Positions 40,715 to 58,000 of a stretch of 64,000 nucleotides of DNA are shown piece after piece. The notes under the pieces are model-generated. The model did not search any database. It was given only the letters and a program-made list of their open reading frames with translations, and was not told the origin of the DNA. Position 1 is the stretch's first letter, and every line of letters starts with the position of its first letter. Position numbers and translations under genes: made by a program. Location of the stretch: positions 48,744 through 112,743 of the forward strand of contig JAVRCJ020000015.1 in assembly GCA_034530875.2 (NCBI GenBank). Reading direction: 5' to 3'. The stretch is from Nostoc sp. DedSLP01. Its GTDB lineage: Bacteria > Cyanobacteriota > Cyanobacteriia > Cyanobacteriales > Nostocaceae.

Positions 40715-41764
40715 CTAATGACCGTTTTGAATAAAAGACTCGACTTTAGCGACGTCTTCTTTACTACCAATAATTAAAGGCGTGCGCTGATGCAGTTTTT
40801 TTGGCACTACGTCCAAAATATCTACTAATCCTGTAGTGGCACGACCGCCTGCTTGCTCGATCAAAAAGGCTAAAGGAGCGGTTTCATAAAGCAGACGCAA
40901 TTTTCCTTCTGGTTTTTCAATTGTGCCTGGGTAGAGAAATACGCCGCCTTGAACTAAAATTCTATGGATGTCGCTCACCATTGCGCCGCTATATCGAGCG
41001 CTATAGCCTTCTGTGCGGTGAACGTAGCGAATGTACTCTCGAATTGATTCTTCCCATTGCCAGAAGTTACCCTCATTCACGCTATAAACAGCGCCGTGGT
41101 TGGGAATGCGGATATTTTCTTCTGTGAGAATAAATTCACCTAAGCTGGGGTCGAGGACAAAGGAGTGAACGCCTTTACCTATAGTATAGACGAGCATTGT
41201 GCTGGGCCCATACAGGATGTACCCAGCAGCAATTTGCTTACGTCCGTTGGCGAGTAGGTCAGTTGCAAGGCGATCGCTATCAGTACCTTCTTGTTGGCGA
41301 ATGGCAAAAATAGAACCTAAGCTGAGATTGATATCGGTATTCGATGAACCATCAATTGGGTCATACAGGAGAGTATACCGTCCAATGGGGCAATTTTCTG
41401 GAATATAGTACGGTTTTTCCATTTCCTCAGAAGCCAGGCGACAAACTAAGCCGCTTTGCTTAAAGACTGAGATAAAGACATCGTTAGCATAAACATCCAT
41501 CTTTTTGACGGATTCACCTTGCACGTTTACTTCTCCAGTAAATCCGAGAACGCCTTCCATTAAACCAGCGCGACTCATGCGACGAGCAATCAATTTGCCA
41601 GCCAGGGCGATGCGATTCATGAGGGCGCTCAAATCTTGTGCATCTGCGGAAAAACTTTGAAGTTGCTGTAAAACGTGACGGGATAGAGTAGTACAATCAC
41701 GATCTAAAGCTCTGTCTGTAGCCTCGTTGACGGACAAACCTAAAGATTCTGGGGCTTGAGTCAT
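40715..41764 (-). CDS. fbp: Class 1 fructose-1,6-bisphosphatase
   Basis: [16 protein letters not shown] and GKLRLLYE. Confidence 0.96.
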
Positions 41765-42014
41765 TTTTTGTGTTCTCCGTAGCCACTAGCTGTTAGTTGG
41801 GTCGAATCGCAACTTTATGGTTGCTGCTTCTATCTTAGAAAGGTAATTTGAGAACTGAGATGCGACTTTAGATAAACTAAAGAAATGAATCTTTGATGAC
41901 TCTCATCCACAGAGCAATAACCGATATTGAGATGTTCGGGGGAGCGATCGCGCTCTAAATTCGATAAATTATTCTCTGATAACTAAAGCTGCAAGTTATG
42001 ATTTGCCAAATTTA

Positions 42015-42023
42015 TGATATAAT
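42015..42023 (+). promoter_or_regulatory. Extended -10 promoter element for the tRNA
   Basis: TGaTATAAT about 10 nt upstream of the tRNA. Confidence 0.6.
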
Positions 42024-42033
42024 CGCAAATCTG

Positions 42034-42105
42034 GGGCGATTAGCACAGGGGTAGCGCACATCCTTCACACGGATGGGGTCACTGGTTCAAATCCAGTATC
42101 GCCCA
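42034..42105 (+). tRNA. trnV: tRNA-Val(CAC)
   Basis: Acceptor stem GGGCGAT/ATCGCCC-A, anticodon arm CATCC-TT-CAC-AC-GGATG, T arm ACTGG-TTCAAAT-CCAGT; CCA not encoded. Confidence 0.95.
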
Positions 42106-42109
42106 TTTA

Positions 42110-42161
42110 TGTAGAGCGACAAATTATTTGACCACTTCAACAAATAATTTGTCGCTCTACA
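42110..42161. terminator. Perfect 21-bp inverted repeat after the tRNA, possibly a bidirectional terminator
   Basis: TGTAGAGCGACAAATTATTTG, a 10-nt loop, then CAAATAATTTGTCGCTCTACA. Confidence 0.75.
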
Positions 42162-42506
42162 ATTTATATGCACTAACAGTTTCAGCTTAGTAACGAGCGT
42201 TCAATTACCTTAAACTTTTTCACTCCAACCAGTATCAAGACTAAAAGTGTACGATTGAGTTGAACGCAAAGTCTATCGAATCTGGGATGAAGCACGTCCG
42301 ATCGCACCAGAACCAGAAGACATAGTTGAAATTTATCTTGTTCCAACTCTAGAGACTTCTTGCAGTGTTTGAAGCAACTCGTTAAGCTAATGCTTATAAA
42401 TTGATGTTTTTCTTGTTTTTTCAAGAATTTGCTGAGGCTAGTATTGGATCAGCTCTTCTCGCCAGTCGGCGGTGCTTCGTTGTCTGAATGTAATATTTCC
42501 ATTGAT

Positions 42507-45482
42507 TTATACTTCTACATCAAGGATACATAAACGATCCTTGATTAATTGTTTGCCTAGATGCATTGGATATGGTGAGAGAATATTACCCATAGACCAA
42601 GCTGGCGAGAACCGTAAATAATGAGGTACTCGACAAAGAGCTTTGAGACTTTCTTCTGTTTTTTGAAAGTCTGGGTGAACGAAGAAGGGAACCATTTCTA
42701 ACATTTGTTGATGTTTGAATGCAATATTGGCACCATACTCATCATTTTGTGAATCAAGCATGTAGAGTTCGCGTGTTATCGAACTATCTTGTGCTTTTTG
42801 TGTTGTTGGTAATCTTCCGATGGAGAAATAATGTAGCAACTCAGGTACAGAAGTATCGTAAAAGCCGCTTAAACGAATTAGATCTCGTGCTGGAGAATTT
42901 TCATCCCAAGTTTGTCTATTGGTGATGTATTGGGTTGTCTCGTCGCCAGTGCGGAAGCGAATTACTGCAAGCAAATTGCTAAGATTTTTATGGTCACGAG
43001 GATATACACAAGCATGGCCTGGAACATGTTGAAAGTCTAAGACATCCCGCTTTGCAAGCAGATATTCATTTTTTAATTGAAACCAAGCTTGACCTTCATT
43101 TTCCTCACCACGCTCATTACGCCATACATCGGCTTCAATTAAAACAAGAGTCGGATGATCCTTTACTTGCGTTAGTACATCCGCCGCAAATTTTGCCAAA
43201 TCTATTCCTTTTAACTGAACTGTTTTAAGATTACTGCGATCGCGGCGTACCTGTGAGAAAATCTGTCCTAGTTCAATACCTGCTTGTGTGTAAGGAATCC
43301 AATTCTGACGATTAGGAAATAATACATCAACAGTACCAGTTGCCCGTAGACGAACAGCTAAGGCATAGTGAATATTATCTTGTCCTTGAGTAGCTTTTCG
43401 GCGACAAAGGGCAATTACATCTAACTTTTGTGCAATTTCTTTGGGTATCGCTGCTTGCTTGTAGACTTCTGAAGGTATTCCATAAAGCGCCCCAATTTGG
43501 CGTAGGGTTACATCTAATACAGCATTGAGAATACGTCCTTCTGTCTTCTTGCTGTAAGATGATGTGTCTGTGCTTTCGTCTTCTTTGTCAGCTGATTTTG
43601 GTTTAACCGTAACCGTTTGCACCATTTGAGAGCTAATTTTTTCTAACACACAAGCTTCACGAACTATTCTATAAATGCTTTGTTTGGGATGAACGCCTTT
43701 CTTTTTACTTTGCCCAATTTCAATAATTGTAAAACAGTAAGGCTTAGTATTAGAGTCAATAGAAGCAATAACTTTCTGCTTCAAAAAGTTACGCCATACA
43801 TCGAGTTTGATTTGATGCTGCTTGCGGATTTGGTTATCAAATTCTTGACCATCTTTAGGTGCAAGTCCGGCTGTGTCAAGAGGTTTCAAAAGATTCGGAT
43901 CGTCAATGCGTATAAATGATATTTTGACATGTTCAGGAAAATTTTCTTTTTCATTTAATAAGAACGCATCACGCAAGCTTGGGTATATCACATCATAAGT
44001 ATTTCGTTCATACCAAAGAATAAAAAGATGCATAGGTTTTCCTTGTAGCGATCGTTCAATCGCATCAGCAATGATCTTTTGTCTTTCTTGACGATGTTCA
44101 TCTATACGTCGCTTAATTTCTTCTTCACTCAACTTTTGTTTTTGTTGTTTTGTGATTGTTAAAGCCTTAGATACGTATTCGTAATCGCGCATTGCCAAAG
44201 GTGTTTTTTGACCAGATGGAGCAGGAATATCACACTGCATTTGAATATCTGGTATTAATACACCATCTAGCAGATTTAATACTTGAGCAATAATATTGCC
44301 CCTTTCTTGTAAACTAAATCCAGTTTTAATGCTATGTCCTCTTTTATGCTTTTCGTGTTTATACTTGTAGCCTTCAGCATGAATTAAATAATATTCATCT
44401 TTTTTCCAGTCTGACTTATTATCTAAATTGCCGTATTGAGAGGGATTTTGAAAAATATTTTCAGTAGTTTCAAGTAGACGCGCTTTAAATGCAGTTAGTA
44501 AATTAGATAACTGGTATTTCCACGGTTGACTATCTTCTTTTCCACTATTTTCAATAGTAAGACGTATAAGTGTTGAATCTATTTCATAACCATTTATACG
44601 TTCCTCATTCATCCCCATTAGTACAGAAATATCACGATTGTAATTAGTTTCAATTAATGGTTCATGAGCATATCTTTGACAACTTAAATGTATAAAAATC
44701 CACGGTTTTAGTTTGCTATTGTTATTAAATCGCCCTGATTGAGTTTGAAGGCGAAAATCTAGACGATAAACAAAGTAACCTTCCCTTTCTTTGTCATTAT
44801 CGTCTATGTATAGCGTCCGAAATGGTTGACTAACTAGGAAAAGTCCTGTACGACCATAACCATCACCTTGTGCTTTTCGCCACTGGATTTCTTGCTCTCT
44901 TGCTCCAGAGTGGATGACACATTTTTTTCCATGCAGTAACGTTGCTATAAAACTGGGAATCGCTTGAAAACTAATTCCTTTTTCGGCATTGATGTCTTGA
45001 ATAAGCTTTTTTGTACTAATAGGTTGCCAATCCCAATTATCGGGAATCATTGCTATGTCTTCGAGAAAGCGATCGCAAACACTCTTCACTTGATCTGCTT
45101 TCCCTTGAGCATAAAATTGCTCTGTCCATTCCTGCGCCCAAATTATCACTAACTCATGTATTTGCTCAGATGTTGGAACTCGCAGTGGATTTTCAATTGT
45201 TCCCACAGCTAAAGCTCGATAATCGCCTTTATTAAAGGATTCAAAACCATGTGTCAATGTTGGTGTACAGGCAAGCAATCCATTGTTTAATTGTCGATAT
45301 GGTATCCAAACCTTTTTTTTGCGATTAGGTGAAAGAACCTCTTCCATTTTGTTGCTAAAATTAGCAACAATTTCTGCAAATGGAAATTCAAGTAACACAA
45401 TTTCTAAATCTCTAAGAGCGTCTTCTGCAAGATCCATTCTGGCAGGTAAGAGAATAGTAGATTGCACGTCTTTTTTAACCAT
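42507..45482 (-). CDS. pPIWI-RE protein (PIWI/Argonaute superfamily; N-terminal X, MID and RNase H-like regions)
   Basis: ~990 aa and third gene after the nuclease and helicase. MID-like YRIVREAC..ISSQMV and RILNAVLDVTLRQIG; R/E motif VIRFRTGDETTQY; C-terminal PYPMHL; AAGGA RBS before ATG 45482. Confidence 0.8.
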   Translation of the reverse strand: MVKKDVQSTILLPARMDLAEDALRDLEIVLLEFPFAEIVANFSNKMEEVLSPNRKKKVWIPYRQLNNGLLACTPTLTHGFESFNKGDYRALAVGTIENPLRVPTSEQIHELVIIWAQEWTEQFYAQGKADQVKSVCDRFLEDIAMIPDNWDWQPISTKKLIQDINAEKGISFQAIPSFIATLLHGKKCVIHSGAREQEIQWRKAQGDGYGRTGLFLVSQPFRTLYIDDNDKEREGYFVYRLDFRLQTQSGRFNNNSKLKPWIFIHLSCQRYAHEPLIETNYNRDISVLMGMNEERINGYEIDSTLIRLTIENSGKEDSQPWKYQLSNLLTAFKARLLETTENIFQNPSQYGNLDNKSDWKKDEYYLIHAEGYKYKHEKHKRGHSIKTGFSLQERGNIIAQVLNLLDGVLIPDIQMQCDIPAPSGQKTPLAMRDYEYVSKALTITKQQKQKLSEEEIKRRIDEHRQERQKIIADAIERSLQGKPMHLFILWYERNTYDVIYPSLRDAFLLNEKENFPEHVKISFIRIDDPNLLKPLDTAGLAPKDGQEFDNQIRKQHQIKLDVWRNFLKQKVIASIDSNTKPYCFTIIEIGQSKKKGVHPKQSIYRIVREACVLEKISSQMVQTVTVKPKSADKEDESTDTSSYSKKTEGRILNAVLDVTLRQIGALYGIPSEVYKQAAIPKEIAQKLDVIALCRRKATQGQDNIHYALAVRLRATGTVDVLFPNRQNWIPYTQAGIELGQIFSQVRRDRSNLKTVQLKGIDLAKFAADVLTQVKDHPTLVLIEADVWRNERGEENEGQAWFQLKNEYLLAKRDVLDFQHVPGHACVYPRDHKNLSNLLAVIRFRTGDETTQYITNRQTWDENSPARDLIRLSGFYDTSVPELLHYFSIGRLPTTQKAQDSSITRELYMLDSQNDEYGANIAFKHQQMLEMVPFFVHPDFQKTEESLKALCRVPHYLRFSPAWSMGNILSPYPMHLGKQLIKDRLCILDVEV

Positions 45483-45506
45483 CGTCAATTCCTTTAAACA
45501 AAAAAG

Positions 45507-48500
45507 TTACCAATACAAACCGTCGATATTTTCTAGTGCATCGGCTAGAGGTTTGTAAAGCGCATTTCCGACTGTGTTTTCCTCGCTGGCGTAATCGCAA
45601 ATTCTTAAAAGCATGGCAACCAAAAGGCTTGTTTCCTCTGTGTCAACTTCAGAAAGTTCTGGATTAGCTTTCCTCGCAGCACTTATGGGCGCCCAAGCTG
45701 CATCGACAAAATAACCGTGAAATGGTACACCTCCACGCAAAAGACGACCAACAGCTTGAATAACTAACCCAGCAGTAGTTGCAGCGAGGTCAAATCGGGG
45801 AGAAGCTAATAATTCCTCATTATTACGTAGAGTTTTGTAATAAGAACGTTGCTCAACCGATCGCCAGTAACGCGCTGCTAATTGACGCACCTTCTCTGCA
45901 CGTTGTACAATACCATCCCCCTGTTGCCATGCGATAAAGTCTGCTTTATCCGCCCAGTCTAAAGCGCGACGGTTCATTTCTTGGGCGATCGCTTGTGTAT
46001 CATGTGGATGTGGATATGGACGAGTCAAAAAGTAAACTGCACCAAATGCAGCTTTACCATTTGCATTCAAAATATTAAAGCCCCGCCCGATGGCATTCAT
46101 CGGAGCAACAAGAATTTTTCCTTGAATTTGCCCAAAAGTTTCAATATCTGCACGATTGAGCGCACCTTTATCAGTTAATTTGGTAAATCTTTCTACTTCA
46201 TCAAAGTCATTTTCGGTATATGTCTCTATATTGTCAGGAACTAAGTGATAAATAAAGTCCTGCATACTTGACCAGCAATTACGAATTTCATTTGCTGCCC
46301 AACGAGCTTGATCGTAAGAGTTTACAAGTAACAAAAGGCGATCGCGATCGCTCCACTGGTTATTTAAATCATTTTCGCCAAGGCGCTTTAATTCCTTGAG
46401 TTCTTGCCCTAAATGACCAGTACCGCTACTACCAACAAGCGATCGCGCTATTTCTTGAAATAATCCCATTTTTTGGCGTTCGGGGCTACCAGAAATCCGG
46501 AGGGGTTTGTTCTTTTGGGTGATTTGCGGCAGAAATTTAAAGGAACTTTGAGCGATCGCTTCTCTCGCCTCTGGTTCTGGCATTAACACACCCTGCGGCT
46601 TACCAACGTGAAAACTGGTAGAATCTGGTAAGTAAGATGTTCCAGAAAGTGCTAGCACATTGGGGCCACGTTGACCGTTAAAATCTGTTAATAAACGATG
46701 AAAGTTTAAAATATAGCAGCGTCCAATATTGGTGTAGGCGAACAATGTCAGGGCATTATTGTTGGCATTTTTGTCGTCATTATTTTCTCTAGAGTAATAA
46801 GTGCCGAACTGCCGTCCCGTAGGAGGCAATGGCAAAATATTTAACATTGCAGCAGGCATTCGCTGATGAGGTGAATCATCATTGATTGATGTTGGTCGAT
46901 TTTGCCATTCATAGAAGACAATTCGAGTATGTCGATCTAATAAAGCGATCGTCAGGGCAAATTGTAGACGATAAGCCAAGGTTTCAAGAGTGTCTACTGG
47001 GTCTTGCTCATCTTTGTTGTAAGTTGATTGTGGCGAACTTTGATTACGATTCTCTAGTTCTGCTCGTAGTCGCGCCAAACGCCGTTCTGTATTTCGGAAA
47101 AATTGGATAATCCAGGCTCTACAAGCCAGGTAGATATTAGCATCTGAAGCACTTTCTCCAGTACTGTTAATTTCTTGCATCAGACGCGCCAGGCGAAAGA
47201 CTGGATCTCGGTTTGGGTTAGCTGGAGGCTGCATCCGTAAAGGATCATCGTCGTTGAGTAGTGCATCAAAACAGCGCACAATTGGCTTTATCAGCCGCGC
47301 ATTTGCTTTTGAAACTGCCTCAGCTGTCTGTGAAGGTTCAAATTCTTCCAATCCAGCAAGACGACGCGCAAATTTGTACAGCAGCGAGTTAGGGGTAAAG
47401 TAACCTCGTTTCACCCATTTTCGGAGAAATTGATGTCCAACCTGTTTATCTAATAGAGTCAATATTGCTGTAATAGCTTTTTGTGCATCACGTTGTGCGC
47501 CCGTCCATCGCTGTGTTGTTGGAGGCATAACCCTGTTAGTTATGGAAAATTGCTCTGTTTTCACGCCAATATCATCAAAAACGCCGTTATTACCACCGTC
47601 AGTCAAAACAACTTCTTCAGCGTAGGTATCATCAAACCACTTGATAACTGTCTCTACTTCATCAAAGACCACAAAATCTGATTGTTCGTTGACGAGTTCA
47701 CCGATTTTGAGCGGACGTAACTCTAAATGACGCGGTAATCCCGCCATTGCCATTGCACCGGGAGTTGTAATCCAAATACGGGCATTTGGCATATCTCGAT
47801 AAACTTGTTGGGATGGGCATTTATCAAAGAAGGGACACAAATAAAATGAACCCCGGCCTTTACGTCGCTTTTTGCGATCGCTTTTAGGCATTTCTTGGAG
47901 AGAATGACAAGGTTCAGTTCCCGGTATCAGTGGTTTGCCGTCTAAAAGTTGAATAAAATCACGCGCTTTTAGCTGACCTTGGAGAGGACAAGCTGTGCCT
48001 AACCAACGTTCACCCCAGTGGGGCTGACCGCGTTGTTGATGTTCCTGATAATCTTTTGAGGCAGAGAAACTTTGAAGATGTGCATCGCGTTTACTGCGTC
48101 CCAAGATTGGCACCGCTACCGGATCATCATTTTCTGGATCGTTACAAAACCACCAGTTAATTTGGTTGGCTAGTTTAATCGCTGATTGCACATCACTAAC
48201 AACTAACGTGATGCGGCGATCGCAATCATGCCGCAAAATGTTAACACTCAACAACTGCGAAACCGTGGTTTTTCCAGAAGCAACCATGCCTGCAATGTTG
48301 GTAAAGCCATCTAACTCAAGAATTTGCTCTTGTTGCAAAAACAGTGTTCCGTCTTCGTCAACTCTGTGAAAGTTAATTTTGCCAAAGCGAGCAACCCAAT
48401 GTCCTTTGGCAGTTTCATCCCAACCATATTGTTGTGCTAATGCTGACTCTCGCCGATCGATCCATGCTGCATCTTGCTCTAAATCTGAAATGCGAAGTGA

Positions 48501-49121
48501 AAACGAACTACGAGAAACAGGTGTGGTAAACCAAGGTGAACGCTGTACCTGTGCATTTTGTATCTGCTGCTGCTTAAATCTGACTGGTACTATAACTGTC
48601 TGTTCTCCTGTCTTGGCCTCAAACTGATAAGTGGTTTCGGCTTCTACTTGTTGAACTTTGCGAAGCCGGAAAATTAAATTAGCTGTTAGGCATCTTTCGT
48701 ACACATCTTGATTAGCTAAATGCCGGAGATTTTTGGCAGCATTAATAATATATTTCTCCCAGTTTTGCGGAGTGAAGTCGCCATAGTTACGCCGATCTAA
48801 CGGTATATCTAGGTAAACACGCAGTGCGTTTAACCAAGCAAAACGAGCAGAAAATGGAACTATTTGGCGAGTATTAGCGATCGCTCGACGTTCCATCTGG
48901 TTCAAGTTCTGTAAACGTGGATGTCTCAAAGGCATTCCACTCAAAATTGCCCAAGGTGCGGTAACTGGCTCATCATCAAGTTGCAAATATTCCATCAAAG
49001 CAAAGGCAAGCTCTATCTGAAGCAACAATTCAGCTTGAGTACGCTTCAAACCTGCTTCCTTCAACTGTTCGAGACGCTCTTGAAACTCTCTTGGTGGGTC
49101 AAATAAAGTCATCTGGCTCAT
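45507..49121 (-). CDS. DinG-like SF2 helicase of the pPIWI-RE operon
   Basis: GMVASGKTT, Cys cluster (ACPL, EPCH, CPFFDKC), VFDEVE, LSGTS, LLVNSY, GRGFNI, QAVGRLLRGG and VDAAWAP. Confidence 0.85.
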   Translation of the reverse strand: MSQMTLFDPPREFQERLEQLKEAGLKRTQAELLLQIELAFALMEYLQLDDEPVTAPWAILSGMPLRHPRLQNLNQMERRAIANTRQIVPFSARFAWLNALRVYLDIPLDRRNYGDFTPQNWEKYIINAAKNLRHLANQDVYERCLTANLIFRLRKVQQVEAETTYQFEAKTGEQTVIVPVRFKQQQIQNAQVQRSPWFTTPVSRSSFSLRISDLEQDAAWIDRRESALAQQYGWDETAKGHWVARFGKINFHRVDEDGTLFLQQEQILELDGFTNIAGMVASGKTTVSQLLSVNILRHDCDRRITLVVSDVQSAIKLANQINWWFCNDPENDDPVAVPILGRSKRDAHLQSFSASKDYQEHQQRGQPHWGERWLGTACPLQGQLKARDFIQLLDGKPLIPGTEPCHSLQEMPKSDRKKRRKGRGSFYLCPFFDKCPSQQVYRDMPNARIWITTPGAMAMAGLPRHLELRPLKIGELVNEQSDFVVFDEVETVIKWFDDTYAEEVVLTDGGNNGVFDDIGVKTEQFSITNRVMPPTTQRWTGAQRDAQKAITAILTLLDKQVGHQFLRKWVKRGYFTPNSLLYKFARRLAGLEEFEPSQTAEAVSKANARLIKPIVRCFDALLNDDDPLRMQPPANPNRDPVFRLARLMQEINSTGESASDANIYLACRAWIIQFFRNTERRLARLRAELENRNQSSPQSTYNKDEQDPVDTLETLAYRLQFALTIALLDRHTRIVFYEWQNRPTSINDDSPHQRMPAAMLNILPLPPTGRQFGTYYSRENNDDKNANNNALTLFAYTNIGRCYILNFHRLLTDFNGQRGPNVLALSGTSYLPDSTSFHVGKPQGVLMPEPEAREAIAQSSFKFLPQITQKNKPLRISGSPERQKMGLFQEIARSLVGSSGTGHLGQELKELKRLGENDLNNQWSDRDRLLLLVNSYDQARWAANEIRNCWSSMQDFIYHLVPDNIETYTENDFDEVERFTKLTDKGALNRADIETFGQIQGKILVAPMNAIGRGFNILNANGKAAFGAVYFLTRPYPHPHDTQAIAQEMNRRALDWADKADFIAWQQGDGIVQRAEKVRQLAARYWRSVEQRSYYKTLRNNEELLASPRFDLAATTAGLVIQAVGRLLRGGVPFHGYFVDAAWAPISAARKANPELSEVDTEETSLLVAMLLRICDYASEENTVGNALYKPLADALENIDGLYW

Positions 49122-49123
49122 GG

Positions 49124-50260
49124 CTATTTTCCTTGCTTCAAAGACTCAATCTTATTGATAACCCGCTGCTCAAATGCAGTATCACTCACAAGATGTGTAC
49201 TATTAGGCAGCTTTTTTGCCTGTTCGCGGAGAATTTCGATATAGTCCTCTCGTTGTTGTAGGCGCTCATCAGGAATGACATAAAAGCTTTCGTTATAACG
49301 CAGGTTGCCCTCACTAAATAGAGGTGTCAGCTTTGGTGCTAATTTGTAGGGATTGTGGTAATCTTTAACATCCACAGCCCAGGTTGATTTGTCACAGAAG
49401 CATAGCTGTAAGTCATAACGATCAATGCCGGGGTAAATATGGATACTACAAATTTGTTCTGGATATTGCTTTTGTAGTTCTTCCAAAGTATGAAATAAGC
49501 GCATTTCGGGTATACCTGGTAAACAAACACGTAAGTGAATGCCTAGCTTCAGACGACGCAGGCCATGTTGCCAAGTAATTTTTTTAACATAGAGTAAATC
49601 TTGACGATGGTCGTTGCAAGCACTGGGTTTAACACCACGTAACTTGCCATATTTTTTAAATAAAGGGCCGCAGCGATCGCAATTCCAGCAAACCTCGTCT
49701 TGTTCGCACTCTTCGTAAAGTTCACCAACTTCTTCGATGTGAATATATCGTGTCTTGAAAAATACCTTGCGAAGCTGCGCCGTAGTTGTGTACGGTTTCT
49801 CAATCAAAAATCGACGCAATAAAACATATTCCCTTTGAATCCGCTCAGGCTGGCTATCGTTGTTGTAGAGTTCTTGCAAACTTTCTAAAATTTTCTTAAA
49901 AGAAAAATTCTCTATTGCCATCTGCTTAGTTGCAGCAGTGGCAAACTCAGGTATTTTGCCTTGTTCAAGCAGTTCCTCATATAAGTATCGGCTTGCTTCT
50001 TCGCTTAACCCCCCTTCATAGAGCAAACCAAAATCTGAATCAAACTCTTTTGGTAATAAATGCTGTGGATACCAAGATTTCACGGGTTTTTCGAGTAACG
50101 CTAAAAGACCTGTTAAAGTACGCGGATAATTTACAGCCGTTACCTCTAGAGCTAGTTTATTCAGAGCATGGCAAAGCAGTTGCGGATATGGATACTTGCC
50201 GTTTCGACGGACAAACTCTGCTAAACCAAGGATGAGGCTATTAAATTCATTATTTTTCAT
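49124..50260 (-). CDS. PD-(D/E)xK restriction-endonuclease-fold protein of the pPIWI-RE operon
   Basis: CDRCG..C..H Zn-like motif, PGIPE, YPGIDRYDL and WAVDVKDY; GAAGGA RBS before ATG 50260. Alternative starts at 50308 and 50332. Confidence 0.8.
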   Translation of the reverse strand: MKNNEFNSLILGLAEFVRRNGKYPYPQLLCHALNKLALEVTAVNYPRTLTGLLALLEKPVKSWYPQHLLPKEFDSDFGLLYEGGLSEEASRYLYEELLEQGKIPEFATAATKQMAIENFSFKKILESLQELYNNDSQPERIQREYVLLRRFLIEKPYTTTAQLRKVFFKTRYIHIEEVGELYEECEQDEVCWNCDRCGPLFKKYGKLRGVKPSACNDHRQDLLYVKKITWQHGLRRLKLGIHLRVCLPGIPEMRLFHTLEELQKQYPEQICSIHIYPGIDRYDLQLCFCDKSTWAVDVKDYHNPYKLAPKLTPLFSEGNLRYNESFYVIPDERLQQREDYIEILREQAKKLPNSTHLVSDTAFEQRVINKIESLKQGK

Positions 50261-50400
50261 GAGAAGTAATCCTTCATTCAAAGGATTTTTTACAACACGA
50301 TTTTTCATTTGTGATACATTTGTTTCATCCACCTTACAGGATTATTTATTTTGTGTCAACTAAGACGCTATTGATTTTTTTGTGAGACAGAGGCAAAGGA

Positions 50401-50766
50401 ATGGAAAGTTATCTAGATATCGAACGATTAGCAAGTCTAGTCCGCAAAAAGCGCGGTAGCAGAGGATTGCGGGAAACGTCAGTGGAAATTGGTAATGTTA
50501 GTCCATCCACTCTTTCAAGGGTAGAGAGCGGTAAAATGCCGGATATGGAAACTTTTCTAGCACTTTGTAACTGGCTACAAGTACCACCTGCTGAGTTATT
50601 TAGAACTGCACAAGAAAATCAACTGGATACACCAGAAGCGATCGCCATTCAACTACGCGCTGACAAAAAGCTTGATCCTGCGATCGCTAATGCTTTAGCA
50701 TCCTTAGTCAAAGCAGCATATCGTGACTTATCACAAAATGATGGCGAATTGAAGCAAGATCCCTAA
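50401..50766 (+). CDS. XRE-family HTH regulator
   Basis: GLRETSVEIGNVSPSTLSRVESGKMPD, with an AAGGA RBS. Confidence 0.9.
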   Translation: MESYLDIERLASLVRKKRGSRGLRETSVEIGNVSPSTLSRVESGKMPDMETFLALCNWLQVPPAELFRTAQENQLDTPEAIAIQLRADKKLDPAIANALASLVKAAYRDLSQNDGELKQDP

Positions 50767-50770
50767 AGAT

Positions 50771-51316
50771 ATGTCACTAATTGAAAGTTTATCGCCTGAA
50801 TTTAGGCAACGCTGTGAGGCGATCGCAACTGAACAACGAAGCCTGCTTGGAGTGCAGGCGTTTGAAGCGTTACCCGCAAACACTTTGGCAGCCAAGTTAG
50901 GAGCAACACTGCTAACACCCGATCAAATTCAAAATTTCGAGCCAGACCAAGTAGCGTTATTACTTGCTAGCGATGGGTGGTCAGCAGGCATTATACGCCA
51001 TAACCCACTGTGGATCGTATACAATCCCCGTCATGCACCTACACGATATGAATCAAATGTAATGCATGAAATAGCTCATGTGTTGCTCAATCATCAGTCT
51101 GTTGGCTTTGATCCTGTAACCGGATTACCAAAACGTAAACAGCACAACGAAGATCAAGCAACTTTTCTTGGAGGATGTCTTCAAATTCCTAAACGTGGTT
51201 TACTATGGGCGACACAACGAAAGATGTTGTTACCTCAAATTGCAGCACATTTTGGTGCTAGTGAAGCGATGGTGTTGTTTCGCAGCAATGTAACAAATGT
51301 CTCTGTCAAATGCTAA
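50771..51316 (+). CDS. ImmA/IrrE-family Zn metallopeptidase
   Basis: IVYNP...RYESNVMHEIAHV (HExxH), EDQATFLGGCLQIP, and C-terminal IAAHFGAS. Confidence 0.88.
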   Translation: MSLIESLSPEFRQRCEAIATEQRSLLGVQAFEALPANTLAAKLGATLLTPDQIQNFEPDQVALLLASDGWSAGIIRHNPLWIVYNPRHAPTRYESNVMHEIAHVLLNHQSVGFDPVTGLPKRKQHNEDQATFLGGCLQIPKRGLLWATQRKMLLPQIAAHFGASEAMVLFRSNVTNVSVKC

Positions 51317-51360
51317 TGTTTCCAAATATCTGCATCTATCTATAGGAATCATATTTGATA

Positions 51361-52446
51361 TCAATTCCGGTTGCACCGGAATGATAAAGCCTTTGTTTTA
51401 GGCCACCAGTGAAAACATGCGAACGCTTGAATTAGAGACGGCTGTTTGAGAAGAATTTGACAGCGTTGGAACAGCACTTGTTCTAGCTCATCAAGATTTT
51501 TAAATGAACGATTGGCTATTGGTTCATTAACTAGAGGCCACAGACGCTCGGCAGGCTGTAATTCAGGAGAGTGAGAAGGTATAAATTCCAGATGTAAGCC
51601 GAATGGTATTTTGACTTGTTCGCTGGTATGCCAACCAGCTTGGTCTATAGTCAAAATAATGTGTTTATCTTTACCAACTGCAAATTCTCTAGCAAAGTCT
51701 GCTAAAACTTGATTAAAAAGCTCAATGTTTACTTTTGGCAGAATCCAAAAATAAGTTTCCCCAGTTTGTGGATGTACAAAACCATACAGCCATAACCATT
51801 GATAGCGCCAGTGGACGTTGGCAATTGGTTGCTCTGCACGGGCTACCCAAACCCGTCGAATTATCGGCTTTAGTCCAAGACGATGTTCGTCCATTCCCCA
51901 AACTTCTACTGTTGCTTGTGGGTATTCTCGTCTAATTTGTTGCACTTGTTGATTGAGTTTTTTTTCCAGGCTTGTTGAACATCTGGGTCGGCTAAATCGT
52001 GTTCTGGGCGGGGCACTCGCAAGGGAAATTCAAGTGAGCGTAGGTAGTCCCAACCTCGCTGTATACTCACCGGGCGCTCAAGAAGATTACTCATCCAATC
52101 TGCAACCTTACGACTATTCCACAATCCTCCATCTGCGGGTGGAGTTTGTAATGGGGAGCAACAACTGTGCTTGCTCTATTTCCGTCAGCATTGGTTTGCC
52201 GCCTGGATGTTCATGACGCAAGTCTTTCATGCCATCAATGCCCAATTCATTGTAACGACGAACCAAACGATATATCGAGTTACGGCACTAACCTGTGACT
52301 GCTGCTACATCTTCTGTTTGTCTTCCTTGAGCCAGCAACCAAATAATTTGGTAACGTGTCCGTTCTATTGGGTCAGATGCTTGACGGTAAAAGTGAAACA
52401 ATTCTTTTACACTTTGGTGAGCTTCTAAATTTAAGCGTTTAGGCAT
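51361..52446 (-). pseudogene. IS630 transposase pseudogene
   Basis: Starts MPKRLNLEAH at 52446; in-frame TAG at 52288-52290 and an extra frameshift near 52153-52157. Confidence 0.88.
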
Positions 52447-52512
52447 AAATTCTCACTTTGCACCCTTGAGACTCCCAAAGCGATCGTATCATTCCGACGC
52501 AGACGGAATCGA
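51361..52512 (-). mobile_element. IS630-family insertion sequence, 1152 bp, transposase inactivated
   Basis: 26-bp TIRs (51361-51386 and 52487-52512, 21/26 match) flanked by TA on both sides. DDE motifs DEHRLG, DQAGWH and SPELQPAERLW. A8 slippery site at 51958-51965. Confidence 0.92.
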
Positions 52513-52530
52513 TATTACAGATTTCTAAGC

Positions 52531-52752
52531 TTAACTTTTTCGCTTTTGTTCCAACTTCTTAAGGTGTTCTTGCATTGCTACTTCCATAATGGTGAGGTTC
52601 TCAGGTGTGTCTGGAATAGGGTATAAATCAGTATCTTCAGAACTCGCTTCTAAGCGATCGGCAAGTTTGTAAAATGCTTCGTCATCATTTCGATGTAACA
52701 GAACATAAGCTCGCAGTTGGGCAATGCTCATAGTGTGAAAATCCGGTTTCAT
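52531..52752 (-). CDS. DUF6887-like small protein (putative antitoxin)
   Basis: KPDFHTMSIAQLRAYVLLHRNDDEAF. Confidence 0.7.
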   Translation of the reverse strand: MKPDFHTMSIAQLRAYVLLHRNDDEAFYKLADRLEASSEDTDLYPIPDTPENLTIMEVAMQEHLKKLEQKRKS

Positions 52753-52800
52753 CTAAACCTTGATTTGCCATCTAAGGGCTAGAATCAATTATATAAAAAT

Positions 52801-52823
52801 ATGGATATATTTTATATATCCAT
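52801..52823. terminator. Hairpin downstream of the Schlafen-like gene
   Basis: ATGGATATAT-TTT-ATATATCCAT. Confidence 0.5.
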
Positions 52824-52846
52824 TCTGTACAAAACTCAAAAATTGC

Positions 52847-54232
52847 TTATCGAACTTTTTGCCAAGCTGAGGTAGCAGTTCTAGTTCCTGGTACTAATTC
52901 TATTAACCCCCTATCTCTAAGTCTATAAAAGGCTGCTTTGATAGTACTTTCAGAGGCTACACCTGTAATTTCTCTTGCAATTTTGTTAGTTATAGTATTG
53001 TTTTCAGATAAGTATTGCATGATTGCTGATTCAATCGAAGCAAGAGGTTCATGTTTAATATAAACTATAACTGAATTTTCCAATTCTTTAATAATAGGAG
53101 GCTTAAGCCTCAGACGACTCATAGCTTCAAAAGCTGTGTTTAGACCCTCACCCACGTCTTTATTAGGTGCATTGGGAAATTTGTTGATAAGGCGTACTAT
53201 CGTACCGTTCCTTGCATACTGCTCTCTCAAAATATTGGTTATTGTGATGTGTCCAGGCAATCTACCTGGGCTTTCAATTTCCACACGATTATCAAAGATG
53301 CGAATTTGTACATCTTTCAAAATACTATAGTCTCTATGTAATACTGCATTCGTAATGATTTCGTGCAGCGTTTCTTCAGGATATTCTATCTGTTCTAATC
53401 TTCCGTCATCAAGTTTGGGGATTTCTTCAATTATCTCCTTAGTCTTTTGTACAGCCTCAGAAATTTGATTATATAACCAGCCTTCAATAGTTATTGGATC
53501 GAATGCAAGATTTTCTCTTCGACCTTCTTCATCAGATGTTTTGTACCTATAGATTTTCACACCACATCTTTTTGGAAGTAAAGCCTGTGGTTCTTCAGAG
53601 AAAATAAGAATACCAGCAACAGTTGGTTTTCCATTAATAATCAACTGTTGCTTTTTTAACCACTGTTCTGGCTCTCCTGTTGGTATAATCTGAAGCATAA
53701 AATCAATAATAGGAATAGAGTTAGTAATAATTTCTATATCAGCATTAACTGTGGATTTTTCAAAGGACTCTATACCTTTATCAAGTCTCAGGCGTGCAAG
53801 CTTCTCCTCTGTATCCTGCGGTAAATTTTGTGCCCCACGTCGGATATAAGGAACGCCATCCGAAGCATTAACAATCTCTCGGCTCTTATGAATGACTACT
53901 TGAAGCACTAGACCACTACAACCATCACAAAATAAGAAAATATAGCTATAGTATTGACCTAAAGGGAATAGTTCTTCAAAAACTTGTAAATGTGCATTTG
54001 CATTTTCTTGATCTGCAAAGCCACGCCAAGTTCGATGCTTTACGCCATCAATTTTATCCTCATCAATTCCAATGTAAAGCTCCCCGCCACTAGTGTTGGC
54101 AAATGCGGATATAGAGCGAGTTAGCTTAGCTGGCTTTATATCTATCGACTTCAAGTCCAGAAAGTGACTTTCCTCAAATGACAAAATTTGATCGAGCTGC
54201 TCAGGTGTAATTTTTTCGACTTGAATTGGCAT
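52847..54232 (-). CDS. Schlafen/AlbA_2 plus HATPase_c_4 plus C-terminal wHTH protein
   Basis: EESHFLDLK, AFANTSGGELYIGIDE, EIITNAVLHRDY, IESPG, and an HTH at the C-terminus. Confidence 0.85.
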   Translation of the reverse strand: MPIQVEKITPEQLDQILSFEESHFLDLKSIDIKPAKLTRSISAFANTSGGELYIGIDEDKIDGVKHRTWRGFADQENANAHLQVFEELFPLGQYYSYIFLFCDGCSGLVLQVVIHKSREIVNASDGVPYIRRGAQNLPQDTEEKLARLRLDKGIESFEKSTVNADIEIITNSIPIIDFMLQIIPTGEPEQWLKKQQLIINGKPTVAGILIFSEEPQALLPKRCGVKIYRYKTSDEEGRRENLAFDPITIEGWLYNQISEAVQKTKEIIEEIPKLDDGRLEQIEYPEETLHEIITNAVLHRDYSILKDVQIRIFDNRVEIESPGRLPGHITITNILREQYARNGTIVRLINKFPNAPNKDVGEGLNTAFEAMSRLRLKPPIIKELENSVIVYIKHEPLASIESAIMQYLSENNTITNKIAREITGVASESTIKAAFYRLRDRGLIELVPGTRTATSAWQKVR

Positions 54233-54303
54233 AAGAATATTCTTGCATTTTCTATAGTTTTAAAGCTTTTTTTAAAAGTTACAAAAGGTATTTATAATTC
54301 ATC

Positions 54304-54659
54304 TCACAAAGGCAGCTTTGCAATCCGATCGCTCCACTCCTCGGCACTGGATATAGCCCAAATCATCACCAGTTCTTCGATAACGACTTCAACTGGTAGC
54401 CTTTGGGAAACAATGATAACTCCTGTACTATGATTGCTGGTGATGAACTGGGCAAATTCTAATGGCATTGTTTTACGGTCGTGGCTGACAAGAATACGTC
54501 CCTGCTGTGCTGCGATCGCCAATACCTCAGAGTCTTTTCTTTTACACCTTCTAATCCAGCAGCCAAGGCGGTTTGGAAGTCAATGCTGGGTTCTCGTCGC
54601 AAAACTCCTGTGACGATCGCCTGATTCAAATCAGCATCGGCTTGGTAGCTAATATTCAC
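54304..54659 (-). pseudogene. DUF5615 PIN-like toxin, frameshifted
   Basis: YQADADLN...GLEGVK then DSEVLAIAAQQGRILVSHD; a 5-bp duplication (CTTTT x2 at 54534-54543) splits the frame. Confidence 0.85.
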
Positions 54660-54985
54660 GATTCTACTTGCTGTCTTGCTGTCTTAGCTGCCATCAGCTT
54701 GTTATACAAAGCAGGATCGGTGGTTTCTAGTGGTTGAGGCATAGTATCAAATGCTGCTTCCTCAGCTTCTAAATAAGTATCAATGTCAGCACGATTGGCT
54801 AGATAAAACGCGATCGCTCCATAAACTTGTTCAAGTGTCAGCAACGGAAAAGAATGAACAATGCTTTCAGGTGATAATCCTTTTCGGAAAGCATAAACAA
54901 TCGAGTCCAAAGAAATCCGAGTTCCCGCAACCCAATAAGCATCTTGACGATATTCTACGTAAGACTTAGCTGTTACAACTGGCAT
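54656..54985 (-). CDS. DUF433 family antitoxin
   Basis: VAGTRISLDSIV...SFPLLTLEQVYGAIAFY, with a GTGA overlap with the PIN gene. Confidence 0.88.
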   Translation of the reverse strand: MPVVTAKSYVEYRQDAYWVAGTRISLDSIVYAFRKGLSPESIVHSFPLLTLEQVYGAIAFYLANRADIDTYLEAEEAAFDTMPQPLETTDPALYNKLMAAKTARQQVES

Positions 54986-55012
54986 AGATTTATTTTGTCT
55001 CTACTTATAAAT

Positions 55013-58000
55013 TTAAACAACAGCTGCCTCTGGAATTGCACCTTGCATTTTTGCGAAAGCATCAATCAAACTTTGCAATTGTTGGTCGGCTTTGAAAACT
55101 CCTAAACCGCGCACTGTGACTTTTCCAGGAGAATAGACAAAACGGGTTTTGAGATTGTCTGGTAAATTCGCCGCTAACAAATTCCAAGCTGGTTCTTCCA
55201 TTGGTGTTTCTAAAACAACGTGCTGTTTGTTTTCTGGTTTAATCCTACTAAATCCAAGTTTTTTCGCTAACTGTTTGAGTTCCATAACTCGCAATAGTTG
55301 ATTGGCTGGGACTGGCAAAGTACCATAACGATCGCTCCATTCAGCTGCAATCTGTTTTAATTCTCCTTTGGATTTCGCTGTCGCCACCGCCCGGTAAGCA
55401 CTCATCTTTTGATCTAAATCGGTAATATAATCTGCGGGAATAAATGCCGTCAGGTTGAGGTCAATCTGGGTATCCTCCACTTGGGGAATTTCTTGGCCGC
55501 GAATTTCTCGAATTGCTTCTTCGAGCATTTCCATGTATAAATCAAAACCGATGGCATCCATTTGACCGGATTGTTCTGCACCCAGTAAGTTACCAACCCC
55601 GCGAATTTCCATATCGCGCATTGCTAATTGATACCCAGAACCGAGTTGAGTAAATTCTTGAATTGCTCGTAACCGTTGCCGCGCTGCATCAGATAGCGTC
55701 CTTTGCTTGGGATAAAATAGCCAAGCATGAGCTTGGATACCTGCACGACCGACACGACCGCGTAATTGATACAACTGAGCCAAGCCAAAGCGATGAGCGT
55801 CTTCAATTAAAATGGTGTTGACTCGCGGAATATCTAAGCCAGATTCGATAATTGTCGTACAAACGAGAATATCTGCTTCACCGTTGCTGAAGGTGAGCAT
55901 GGTTGATTCTAACTCGCTTTCATCCATTTGACCGTGAGCGATCGCAAATCTACCCCCTGGTATCATTTCTCGCAAGCTTGCGGTTGTCTCTTCAATGCCT
56001 TCAACTCGTGGAACTACATAAAATACTTGTCCACCTCGGTCTAATTCTTGACGTATGGCACTACGCACGCTTTCTGAATTTAGCGGTGCAAGGTGAGTTT
56101 TAATCGGGCGTCGAGTTGGAGGTGGTGTAGTAATTAAACTCATTTCCCGAATTCCCGACAAAGACATATACAGGGTACGGGGAATGGGAGTAGCAGAGAG
56201 AGTCAGCACATCAACTTGAGTTTTCAAGCTTTTAATTTTCTCTTTTTGGTTCACTCCAAAACGCTGTTCTTCATCCACCACCAACAGTCCTAAATCTTTG
56301 AATGATACGCCTTTGCCTAAGAGTTGGTGTGTACCAACTACTACATCGAGTTCGCCCGTTGCCAATCGCTTTTGAATATCGCGGCGTTCTTCAGCGGAAC
56401 GAAAGCGGTTGAGTAAGCCGACATTCACGGGGTACGGAGCAAAACGTTCTTTGAGTGTATGGTAGTGCTGCTGAGTTAAAATAGTAGTTGGCGCAAGGAG
56501 TGCCACTTGTTTACCGGCGGTGACTGCTTTAAAAACAGCACGAATCGCCACTTCCGTTTTTCCAAAACCGACATCGCCACAAACTAAGCGATCCATTGGT
56601 CGATCGCTTTCCATGTCGCGTTTGACATCTTGTACGGCTTTTAGCTGATCTGTTGTAGGTTGGTAAGGGAAAGAATCTTCCATTTCCTCTTGCCAAGGCA
56701 TATCGCTGGGGAAACTAAAACCTTGTTGTTGCGATCGCGCTGCATATAATTTCAGCAAGTCCACCGCCAATTTCTTAATCGCTTTGCGGACTTTGTTCTT
56801 GGTATTCTCCCAAGCCTTACCAGTCATCTTGTTGAGTTCTGGTGCCTTATCTCCTGCGGCACGGAACCGAGATAAAGCACCTAATTGGTCGGCTGCAACT
56901 CTCAGTAAACCGTCGGCATATTGCACCACCAAATAATCACGAGTTTCATCATTAATCGTTAAGCTTTCCAGCTTGACAAATTTGCCAACACCATGATTTC
57001 TGTGAACTACATAATCCCCTGGACGCAGCTTATTGGGATCGACTTGTTTAGAAGTTGCTTTGTGGCGTTTGCGAATAAAACCGGGAGTTGCTAAAGAATG
57101 CTGACCATAAAATTCCCGGTCAGTGACAACTACTAGCCGATAAGTAGGCAGAATAAAACCTTCGAGTTCCGCCAAGCCAGAATATTTGAGTGCGACTGGA
57201 GTGTGGTTGATTTGTAGCTTATCAATCGCTAGGTAATCGCGGGGATTGGGGATAAATTGCGCCGGACAATCGTGTTCTTGCAACAGCGACACAGAACGCG
57301 AAGGTTGAGCCGAAATCAGCCAAATCGAGAAATTGCGATCGCGTTCTTGGCGAATAGTGTCAGCTAATTTAGCAAACTGATGTGGCGTAACCGGAACGCT
57401 TCTACTCGCAAGATTAATTCCATCATTTTCTTCCGACAGTTCCGATAAATAAAGTGTTTGAAACCTCGCAACATCAGCCAAACAATCATCAAACGACCGA
57501 TGAATCTTCGGTAATTTTGGGGGAGTGGGGAGTGGGGAGTGGGGAGTAGATTGTTCGCTATTCCCTATTCCCCATTCCCTATTCCCCATTCCCCATTGTT
57601 CTTCCGCATTTTCTACCCAGCGATCGCTATGAGCGTGACACTGTTCTGGTTCATCAATGGCAATCAAGGTGTTTTCTGGTAAGTACTCTAGCACCGATGC
57701 TGGTTGCTCGAACGCCAAACCCAAAAAACGGCGGCTACCTTCAATCAGTCCTGAGTTTCCATTGTCGAGTGCTGAGTCAGAATTTAACTGGGCACTCAGT
57801 ACTCTAAACTCAGGACTATCCTTGAGTGGTGCCATGATGATGGGAGCAAAGCTAGTCGGCGTGAGAATTAACTGCTCAACTTTGTCAAGGGCAGAACGTT
57901 GAGTTGCTGGATCGAATTCCCGTATTTGTTCGATTTCGTCGCCAAACCATTCTAGCCTGACTGGTAACTCCGAGGAAACCGGAAACACATCAACAATATC

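Follow-up and report, generated by a model that had tools for sequence, protein, structure and literature searches.

We analyzed a pPIWI-RE operon and its upstream genes in a 64,000-nucleotide stretch of the genome of Nostoc sp. DedSLP01 (contig JAVRCJ020000015.1), hereafter called the window, to which all positions refer. The operon encodes a restriction endonuclease-like protein (REase), a helicase and a PIWI-RE protein, and a repressor-peptidase gene pair lies upstream on the opposite strand. We propose, with a probability of roughly 0.55, that these five genes constitute a stress-inducible defense module against foreign DNA, in which the pPIWI-RE triad is placed under a repressor-peptidase switch. 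The composition of the unit, the predicted folds of its proteins, the intact motifs of the helicase, nuclease and peptidase, the linkage of the pair to the triad and a conserved candidate operator were obtained directly from the sequences and models. The triad by itself is not new, since the family was described in 2013 and is modeled in Pfam and PADLOC; the new element is the switch with its candidate operator attached to this known triad, and no earlier paper joining them was found.

PIWI-RE proteins are a branch of the Argonautes predicted more than 10 years ago, and no functional test of a whole system was found in the literature searched. A dedicated switch would indicate when to look for such a function, namely, after stress or in a repressor mutant, and would explain an operon without a phenotype while uninduced. 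All five genes are complete in the window, where a candidate operator has also been mapped, and the orthologous locus of the tractable model cyanobacterium Anabaena PCC 7120 already has a purified repressor and a deletion strain.

Composition and predicted folds of the pPIWI-RE triad

The triad consists of three uninterrupted open reading frames (ORFs) on the minus strand, separated by intergenic gaps of 2 and 24 nucleotides (nt), as a previous sequence-only reading of this DNA had recognized. The first gene (49124..50260; 378 amino acids [aa]) encodes the REase, with a Y domain, a zinc ribbon and a PD-(D/E)xK domain, and carries no fused helix-turn-helix (HTH). It is followed by a gene for a superfamily 2 (SF2) helicase of the DinG/XPD/DdmD kind with an N-terminal Z domain (45507..49121; 1204 aa) and by the PIWI-RE gene (42507..45482; 991 aa, ATG at 45482), whose product comprises an X region, a MID domain at about aa 483-662 and an RNase H-type PIWI domain at about aa 677-991. 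The order REase, helicase, PIWI-RE is kept in related loci, and each triad gene is single-copy in the genome of the window. An alternative REase start in the ORF list, GTG at 50332, overlaps the predicted promoter described below, and a GAAGGA site is found at 50270-50275; therefore, the ATG at 50260 is the better start.

Family membership was evaluated with profiles. The REase gene product matched pPIWI_RE_REase (PF18154) with 93 bits and pPIWI_RE_Y (PF18156) with 24.5 bits, just below the cut-off of 26.7, and the helicase matched pPIWI_RE_Z (PF18155) with 117 bits. In the PIWI-RE protein, RNaseH_pPIWI_RE (PF13032) reached 81.2 bits (cut-off, 25) and pPIWI_RE_X (PF13111) reached 54.2 bits (cut-off, 30.5). 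The MID profile PF18157 gave no Pfam match for the window protein; it matches the relatives L013 and P0022 with 38 and 40 bits. PADLOC identified PprRE, PprDinG (400 bits) and PprPIWI (E value, 6.5e-43). The family, gene order and domain content assigned in the sequence-only reading are thus in agreement with Pfam, PADLOC and the predicted folds. All the sequence-level defining features given by Burroughs, Iyer and Aravind in 2013 (PMC3702460) are present, and on the grounds of sequence and models the triad is a genuine pPIWI-RE system, with a REase, a DinG/DdmD-type helicase with a presumed iron-sulfur cluster and a PIWI-RE protein. The window shares with the 2013 system (Ppr, or "pAgo type III," in PADLOC) the gene order, the tight spacing, the Y-zinc ribbon-REase, Z-DinG and X-MID-PIWI domains, the conserved R and E and the lack of an adjoining methylase. 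It differs from that system, for which the 2013 text describes HTH fusions, in that its REase has no fused HTH and a separate XRE repressor, an M78 peptidase and an operator are found instead. It also belongs to a divergent clade, as its RNaseH profile score of 81 bits compares with 135 to 188 bits in other cyanobacterial pPIWI-RE clades.

The PIWI-RE protein was modeled with AlphaFold2 from a 77-sequence alignment (pLDDT, 93.4; pTM, 0.93). Foldseek matched the model to Argonautes and Piwis, with a best E value of 7e-11 and 207 matches at E values of ≤0.001. Structural alignment with VIA-align over the whole length gave CpAgo (Z score, 15.2; root mean square deviation [rmsd], 6.3; 574 aligned residues), and DdmE was also among the matches (Z score, 11.4), while aa 483-662 aligned with the MID domain of AtAGO2 (Z score, 8.4; rmsd, 3.5; 121 aligned residues). 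A sequence search of the protein against solved structures returned nothing useful. The earlier reading had staked its proposal on a MID/PIWI fold for 42507-45482, and an Argonaute fold together with a MID match is what the model predicts. Residues R608 and Q619 are invariant across the 77 sequences. R844 is kept in 33/36 sequences of the window's own clade and in 11/11 of other clades, and E929 in 35/36 and 11/11, respectively; these two residues are the R and E of the family, which had been noticed as an R..E motif.

The catalytic site of the PIWI domain appears to be altered. Position 693, at the end of strand 1 (predicted strand, 688-697), where active Argonautes carry the first Asp, is a Cys, and none of the 36 sequences of the own clade or of the 11 from other clades has an Asp in this column. 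The position was mapped by a profile alignment to the GLD Asp of long-A prokaryotic Argonautes (pAgos), with a nonsignificant E value of 0.15, and by the predicted strand; the pAgo profile was built from the 24 of 30 cyanobacterial sequences having both GxD and RDG motifs. The column of E783 is acidic in 24/36 sequences of the own clade, and the fourth catalytic site is presumably K977, by analogy of motifs. An acidic tetrad with its first Asp at the end of strand 1, as expected of a slicer, was not found in the window PIWI-RE. With moderate confidence, alignment and model suggest that the protein is probably a slicer-dead, noncutting sensor. PsPIWI-RE of Pseudomonas stutzeri (PMC10991935), which belongs to the same family and, according to that paper, has the same gene neighborhood, acts on RNA-DNA hybrids and requires D525 and D610 for cutting. 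Compared by description, the first catalytic position of the window protein appears to be Cys, so that the REase would be expected to do the cutting.

The helicase model (pLDDT, 81.9) had its best Foldseek match in DdmD within DdmDE (E value, 2.3e-10), followed by XPD and DinG, and VIA placed DinG, CasDinG and XPD at the top (Z scores, 12.0 to 11.5; best, Staphylococcus aureus DinG with 12.0), with other SF2 helicases within 1 Z. The sequence search against solved structures gave matches at the P-loop level only. The Walker motif residues G278/G283/K284 and D487-E488, the residues R1126/R1129 and the four cysteines C378, C405, C429 and C435 are invariant in 32/32 aligned sequences from the own and other clades, which bears out the description of a 1204-aa helicase with four clustered cysteines; the four-cysteine region (47817..47990, minus strand) presumably binds an iron-sulfur cluster. 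In the REase, C194/C197/C215/H218, D283 and K299 are invariant in 19/19 intact related ORFs. The Cys/His motif noted earlier is therefore conserved, and of the "DVK" proposed for this nuclease K299 is invariant in these ORFs but D297 is not.

DdmDE provides a functional comparison, in which a guide-bound protein of Argonaute fold loads a helicase of the DinG/XPD type (bioRxiv 2024.05.10.593530). DdmD is a fused helicase-nuclease, whereas the window nuclease is a separate first gene and PIWI-RE is a different Argonaute branch. The profiles matched are those of pPIWI-RE/Ppr and the nuclease is separate, so the triad is not a DdmDE system; it may still work alike.

A divergent repressor-peptidase pair and its candidate operator

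The three-gene extent given in the sequence-only reading holds for the triad, which is intact, but omits a divergent regulator pair and a promoter/operator region upstream. An XRE-family HTH repressor gene (50401..50766, plus strand; 121 aa; Pfam HTH_3, 32 bits) begins 140 nt upstream of the REase start on the opposite strand, and it is followed by a gene for an ImmA/IrrE-type (M78) zinc peptidase (50771..51316, plus strand; 181 aa; Pfam Peptidase_M78, 57 bits). The peptidase motif H99-E100-x-x-H103 and E127 are invariant in 28/28 intact related ORFs. The M78 match covers aa 71-172, with nothing further in Pfam, indicating a short form; the nearest Atlas clusters are ImmA/IrrE (score, 0.97), and PADLOC capP matched with an E value of 0.03. 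Searches of both proteins against solved structures returned nothing meaningful. A predicted repressor-peptidase complex scored 0.48 versus 0.01 for the best control, with at least 41% of contacts shared between runs and a partner pLDDT of at least 67. The mark used for this prediction is reached by 116/157 solved pairs and 2/215 mismatched pairs, and at scores of ≤0.60 by 18/157 and both mismatches. The prediction lends weak support to a complex and may reflect likeness to solved repressor-peptidase pairs.

Such pairs are known as CapH-CapP, ImmR-ImmA and DdrO-IrrE (bioRxiv 2022.04.27.489752; PMC13228613), which have in common an XRE repressor and an M78 peptidase with an HExxH motif. The layout of the window, upstream and on the opposite strand, matches that reported for capH/capP beside defense operons, and the main text on CapH-CapP (bioRxiv 2022.04.27.489752) names neither Argonaute nor PIWI. 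The CapP architecture with a C-terminal GAF domain is not seen in the 181-aa window peptidase, for which the capP match is the weak one given above.

Between the divergent genes, a triad promoter was predicted at 50331..50359 (minus strand), with a -35 element TTGACA at 50354-50359, a 17-nt spacer and TG followed by a weak -10 element, TAAGGT, at 50331-50336. An operator-like imperfect palindrome, TGAWAC-N4-GTWTCR (50312..50327), lies over the predicted transcription start of the triad, not over that of the repressor gene. Across loci, the intergenic DNA keeps TTGACA, a spacer of 17 to 18 nt, a weak TG-TAnnnT and then the palindrome, which is located 32 to 33 nt past the start of TTGACA in 15/19 intergenic regions versus 18/3800 shuffles, the motif having been derived from the same related sequences on which it was counted. 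The composite promoter-palindrome pattern occurs in 0/17 loci of other clades and twice in the genome of the window. Across the genome, the exact palindrome shows no enrichment (7 strand matches versus 11.8 expected), which argues for local action.

Next, the linkage of the pair to the triad was evaluated in related loci. The relatives, which are 79 to 87% identical, belong to records under the names Nostoc, Komarekiella and Aulosira, and the host is accordingly a member of the Nostocales. Seven of 36 related genome loci stop before the regulator position, leaving 29 informative, and 27 of these have the peptidase together with all or part of the repressor. One exception, L036, is a short PIWI remnant. 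The other, L024, has an intact triad and no pair; it keeps an operator-like site and has lost the -35 element, suggesting, from its sequence, that the pair was lost secondarily. Among 20 metagenome loci found via the helicase, 14 reach far enough to be informative; 13 have repressor and peptidase, and the 14th keeps a peptidase remnant. Two of them, L109 and L112, carry all five genes whole and have GC contents of 63% and 60% and no HIP1 site, and therefore their hosts are probably noncyanobacterial; noncyanobacterial members were sampled only via helicase alignment. Starting from the peptidase, 19/401 genomes gave a match, and 13/18 non-self loci have an adjacent REase, the other five being a helicase remnant, a phospholipase D (PLD)-helicase, a gene that looks integrase-like by eye beside a repressor remnant, a contig end and a lone fragment.

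In other cyanobacterial PIWI-RE clades, 17 loci were collected, one of which ends too soon, and 0/16 informative loci match the pair profiles, which were built from the clade of the window and could miss distant repressor-peptidase pairs. These clades have longer REase regions, one with a weak MerR match, which agrees with the HTH fusions known from the 2013 description. Peptidase and triad pairwise identities are correlated in 19 loci (Spearman, 0.91 to 0.94), which, as a comparison of sequences, shows shared descent and not function. Overall, the pair is linked to the PIWI-RE clade of the window, unlike in the other cyanobacterial clades sampled.

The repressor has a published counterpart. 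Two alr1976 primers match the window repressor gene at 50401-50426 and 50686-50706 with 2 mismatches each (0/100 shuffles). An outside check primer finds its site in the window's REase gene (49388-49408; 3 mismatches), and the promoter-forward primer has no window match within 3 mismatches, but matches in the REase gene of 4/162 loci. A supplementary table of PMC13056922 lists in a row all1973 (a pPIWI_RE module protein), all1974, all1975, alr1976 (HTH) and alr1977 (ImmA/IrrE), with lengths of 940 nt for all1973, 3730 for all1974 and 1243 for all1975. As judged by these primer sequences and this annotation table, through which the PCC 7120 locus is known here, NsrX/Alr1976-Alr1977 are the orthologues of the window pair at an orthologous locus, and NsrX is the repressor of the module, since the primers match and the table places alr1976/alr1977 beside all1973-all1975. 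The tabulated PCC 7120 PIWI-RE gene is less than one third of full length, whereas the window copy is whole; for the PCC 7120 REase and helicase genes, the table gives full length.

NsrX was published in 2025 as a secondary nitrogen regulator (PMC12584617). In electrophoretic mobility shift assays, it binds the region of its own promoter at high affinity and independently of metal, and nitrogen-gene promoters at lower affinity, enhanced by Mn. Six of ten targets rise in the nsrX deletion, which has no pronounced phenotype. FurC (PerR) binds the same region, and furC overexpression lowers alr1976 13- to 15-fold (PMC12282138), suggesting oxidative stress as a possible trigger. The terms "PIWI," "all1975" and "all1974" are absent from the main text of PMC12584617, and expression values for all1975-all1973 were not found in the supplementary tables searched. 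In a library that lacks most subscription journals, no paper was found that connects any PIWI-RE operon with NsrX or with a repressor-peptidase pair. If the triad is indeed under such a switch, the 2025 "nitrogen regulator" would have to be seen as guarding an operon of the immune type, and in the available nsrX deletion strain this operon would already be derepressed and open to testing.

Proposed mechanism and competing explanations

In the proposed module, the XRE protein would bind the palindrome over the triad start and keep the triad off; binding to the equivalent DNA has been shown in vitro for the PCC 7120 orthologue, and the exact site and the repression of the triad are our inference. 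By analogy with ImmA-ImmR, IrrE-DdrO and CapP-CapH, DNA damage, single-stranded DNA or oxidative/zinc stress would lead the peptidase to cut the repressor, whereupon the triad would be transcribed. PIWI-RE, given its predicted fold and by analogy with PsPIWI-RE, may then hold a short guide via its MID domain and base-pair with a target strand that it would leave uncut, the duplex probably being an RNA-DNA hybrid. Finally, as DdmE does with DdmD, PIWI-RE might load the iron-sulfur helicase, which would unwind and track along the DNA while the separate REase degrades it. The idea of the sequence-only reading, in which the PIWI-RE protein binds a guide, the helicase unwinds and the nuclease cuts, fits the predicted Argonaute fold with its seemingly lost first catalytic site beside a helicase of the DdmD/DinG type. 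A more specific version is that a noncutting PIWI-RE under an SOS-like protease switch takes guides from the products of damage or infection and steers the DdmD-like iron-sulfur helicase and the separate nuclease onto RNA-DNA hybrids, NsrX being primarily the repressor of an immune operon and its nitrogen role secondary; we advance this version tentatively, as conceivable more than probable.

The distribution of the genes is that usual for defense genes, patchy and with frequent decay. The PIWI-RE domain was found in 23/401 genomes of the phylum. All five genes are clean in 10 of the 29 informative loci, and 1 locus has only an intact triad; the remaining 18 are broken somewhere, including 3 loci that pass the 90% coverage test yet have an early break or a helicase-PIWI fusion, and some of the breaks may come from assembly errors. 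A PLD-nuclease/SF2-helicase gene, whole or in part, has taken the place of the repressor's first half, the promoter, the REase and most of the helicase in 7 Nostoc loci, as if one defense-type gene had been exchanged for another in that slot.

Several points weigh against a defense module under this switch. In the literature found, no PIWI-RE system has been shown to protect against phages or plasmids, and the only in vivo phenotype found, the ciprofloxacin sensitivity of the P. stutzeri knockout (PMC10991935), fits genome maintenance. No guide source was found, with no repeat array in 41500-55500 and only the tRNA detected by Rfam. The catalytic-site mapping of PIWI-RE leans on the nonsignificant alignment (E value, 0.15) and on predicted strands. 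The GAF domain of CapP forms part of its single-stranded DNA groove (PMC13228613), and the 181-aa peptidase, with its M78 match only, is too short for such a C-terminal domain, leaving the trigger uncertain. In the nsrX deletion, nifHDK rose 8.4-fold and devBCA 3.6-fold (PMC12584617), so that the repressor may have wider targets, and the expression of the neighboring triad is unreported for this strain. Moreover, 4/19 intergenic regions have another layout without the exact operator pattern, a strict sigma-70 scan calls no promoter in the window, and the -10 element matches at 3/6 positions. Finally, the loci are related to one another and some belong to more than one of the three sets; their counts describe one clade and not independent events.

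The competing explanation that survives best is damage-induced genome maintenance, in which, after stress, PIWI-RE, helicase and nuclease would free the host chromosome of R-loops or of stalled or catenated replication structures. Knockout of PsPIWI-RE lowers survival of ciprofloxacin about 15-fold and leads to filamentation (PMC10991935), DinG acts on R-loops (PMC3702460), and IrrE-DdrO controls repair genes in Deinococcus (PMC13228613). The unit also sits among housekeeping genes in one copy per genome, and its clade was not found in the viral contigs or plasmids searched. However, presence in so few genomes of the phylum and the breakage of most informative loci weigh against maintenance, and the replacement by a PLD-nuclease/helicase in 7 loci and by a reverse transcriptase in 1 is a turnover that suits a defense slot. 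We consider maintenance doubtful.

Abortive infection we regard as improbable. Here, the induced, target-bound PIWI-RE and helicase would also turn the REase loose on the host's own DNA, and the cell would die or be arrested, as with nuclease-coupled long-B and short pAgos; abortive infection is the mode of action of the characterized systems of these kinds (PMC11333966). Toxicity is suggested by the presence of a dedicated repressor-peptidase switch, CapH-CapP controls an abortive CBASS (bioRxiv 2022.04.27.489752), and many deletions take out the promoter-REase region. Nevertheless, the PCC 7120 nsrX deletion grows without a pronounced phenotype with REase and helicase genes at full length (PMC12584617; PMC13056922), and DdmD, the closest helicase fold, eliminates plasmids (bioRxiv 2024.05.10.593530). 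Since the PIWI-RE gene of PCC 7120 has less than one third of its full length, the growth of that strain shows only that the nuclease is nontoxic without its sensor.

Very improbable is an independent, autoregulated pair, a nitrogen/metal fine-tuner or a toxin-antitoxin-like module, beside a constitutive triad: the binding of NsrX to nitrogen-gene promoters with six of ten targets raised in its deletion (PMC12584617), the binding of FurC to its promoter with the 13- to 15-fold drop of alr1976 (PMC12282138) and the intact triad of L024 without a pair speak for it, but pair and triad are linked whichever of them the search starts from, even in hosts of 60 to 63% GC that lack HIP1 sites, the palindrome lies over the predicted start of the triad and not of the repressor, L024 also lost its -35 element, and the exact palindrome is not enriched genome-wide.

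Flanking DNA and variation among related loci

The five-gene unit is bounded on one side by fbp and a tRNA-Val(CAC) gene (42034..42105, plus strand; ARAGORN and Rfam), 400 nt beyond the PIWI-RE stop, and on the other by a broken IS630-family element, a Schlafen/AlbA-ATPase gene and a DUF433 gene, beyond which lies a 1194-aa gene that we take to be mfd. The IS630 element (51351..52522, minus strand; NCBIfam transpos_IS630, 136 bits) follows directly after the peptidase gene and has imperfect terminal inverted repeats and stops in its upstream part. Beside this remnant, 52847-54232 encodes a 461-aa Schlafen/AlbA_2 and ATP-binding protein with weak PADLOC pAgo-associated matches, which is beside the operon in none of the 36 related loci.

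Integration at tRNA-Val was considered and is not supported. No second copy of at least 14 nt of the tRNA-Val 3' end was found in the genome, so there is no att duplication, no integrase is among the identified genes flanking the unit, and the tRNA is nearby in only 3/36 related loci. Likewise, with no integrase in the identified surrounding genes, the unit is not an obvious switch of an integrative and conjugative element. HIP1 sites are about as dense in the operon (12.9 per 10 kb) as in the host (8.9), which gives no sign of recent import. Just after tRNA-Val, at 42110-42161, there is a perfect 21-nt inverted repeat with a 10-nt loop; similar short stretches match other places in several relatives, and it is perhaps a small dispersed repeat or a terminator. 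Judged by eye, no conserved sequence downstream of PIWI-RE is shared across clades.

The 7 loci with the PLD-nuclease/SF2-helicase gene are L004, L007, L009, L010, L012, L020 and L027, where it lies between the peptidase and a helicase remnant; L145 also carries it. Where whole, the gene encodes about 900 aa, and PIWI-RE stays whole in some of these loci; a distant relative of it is found at L016:884-3793. In L006 (8171-9775), a 534-aa reverse transcriptase gene (Pfam RVT_1), possibly defense associated, lies on the opposite strand where the helicase's second half and the beginning of PIWI-RE would otherwise be. Single frames that join helicase and PIWI-RE parts, apparently by in-frame deletions, occur at L032:6866-12721, L103:3847-6255 and L010:9749-11866, the first being a 1951-codon frame with about 90% of both proteins. 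In L030, L031, L032, L101 and L102, an extra 300 to 500 nt or so separates the repressor and peptidase genes.

Beyond the clade of the window, at least two further pPIWI-RE clades, with longer REase regions, are present in cyanobacteria (L073-L089), and strains G161 and G397 have two separate PIWI-RE domain matches each, of differing or partial kind. Relatives from the window's clade were absent from the viral contigs and plasmids searched, and the PIWI-RE of another clade matched 7 plasmids. A Streptomyces plasmid (L093:1803-10877) carries a pPIWI-RE-like run of three genes, directly behind which come a small gene and a gene annotated as a restriction endonuclease.

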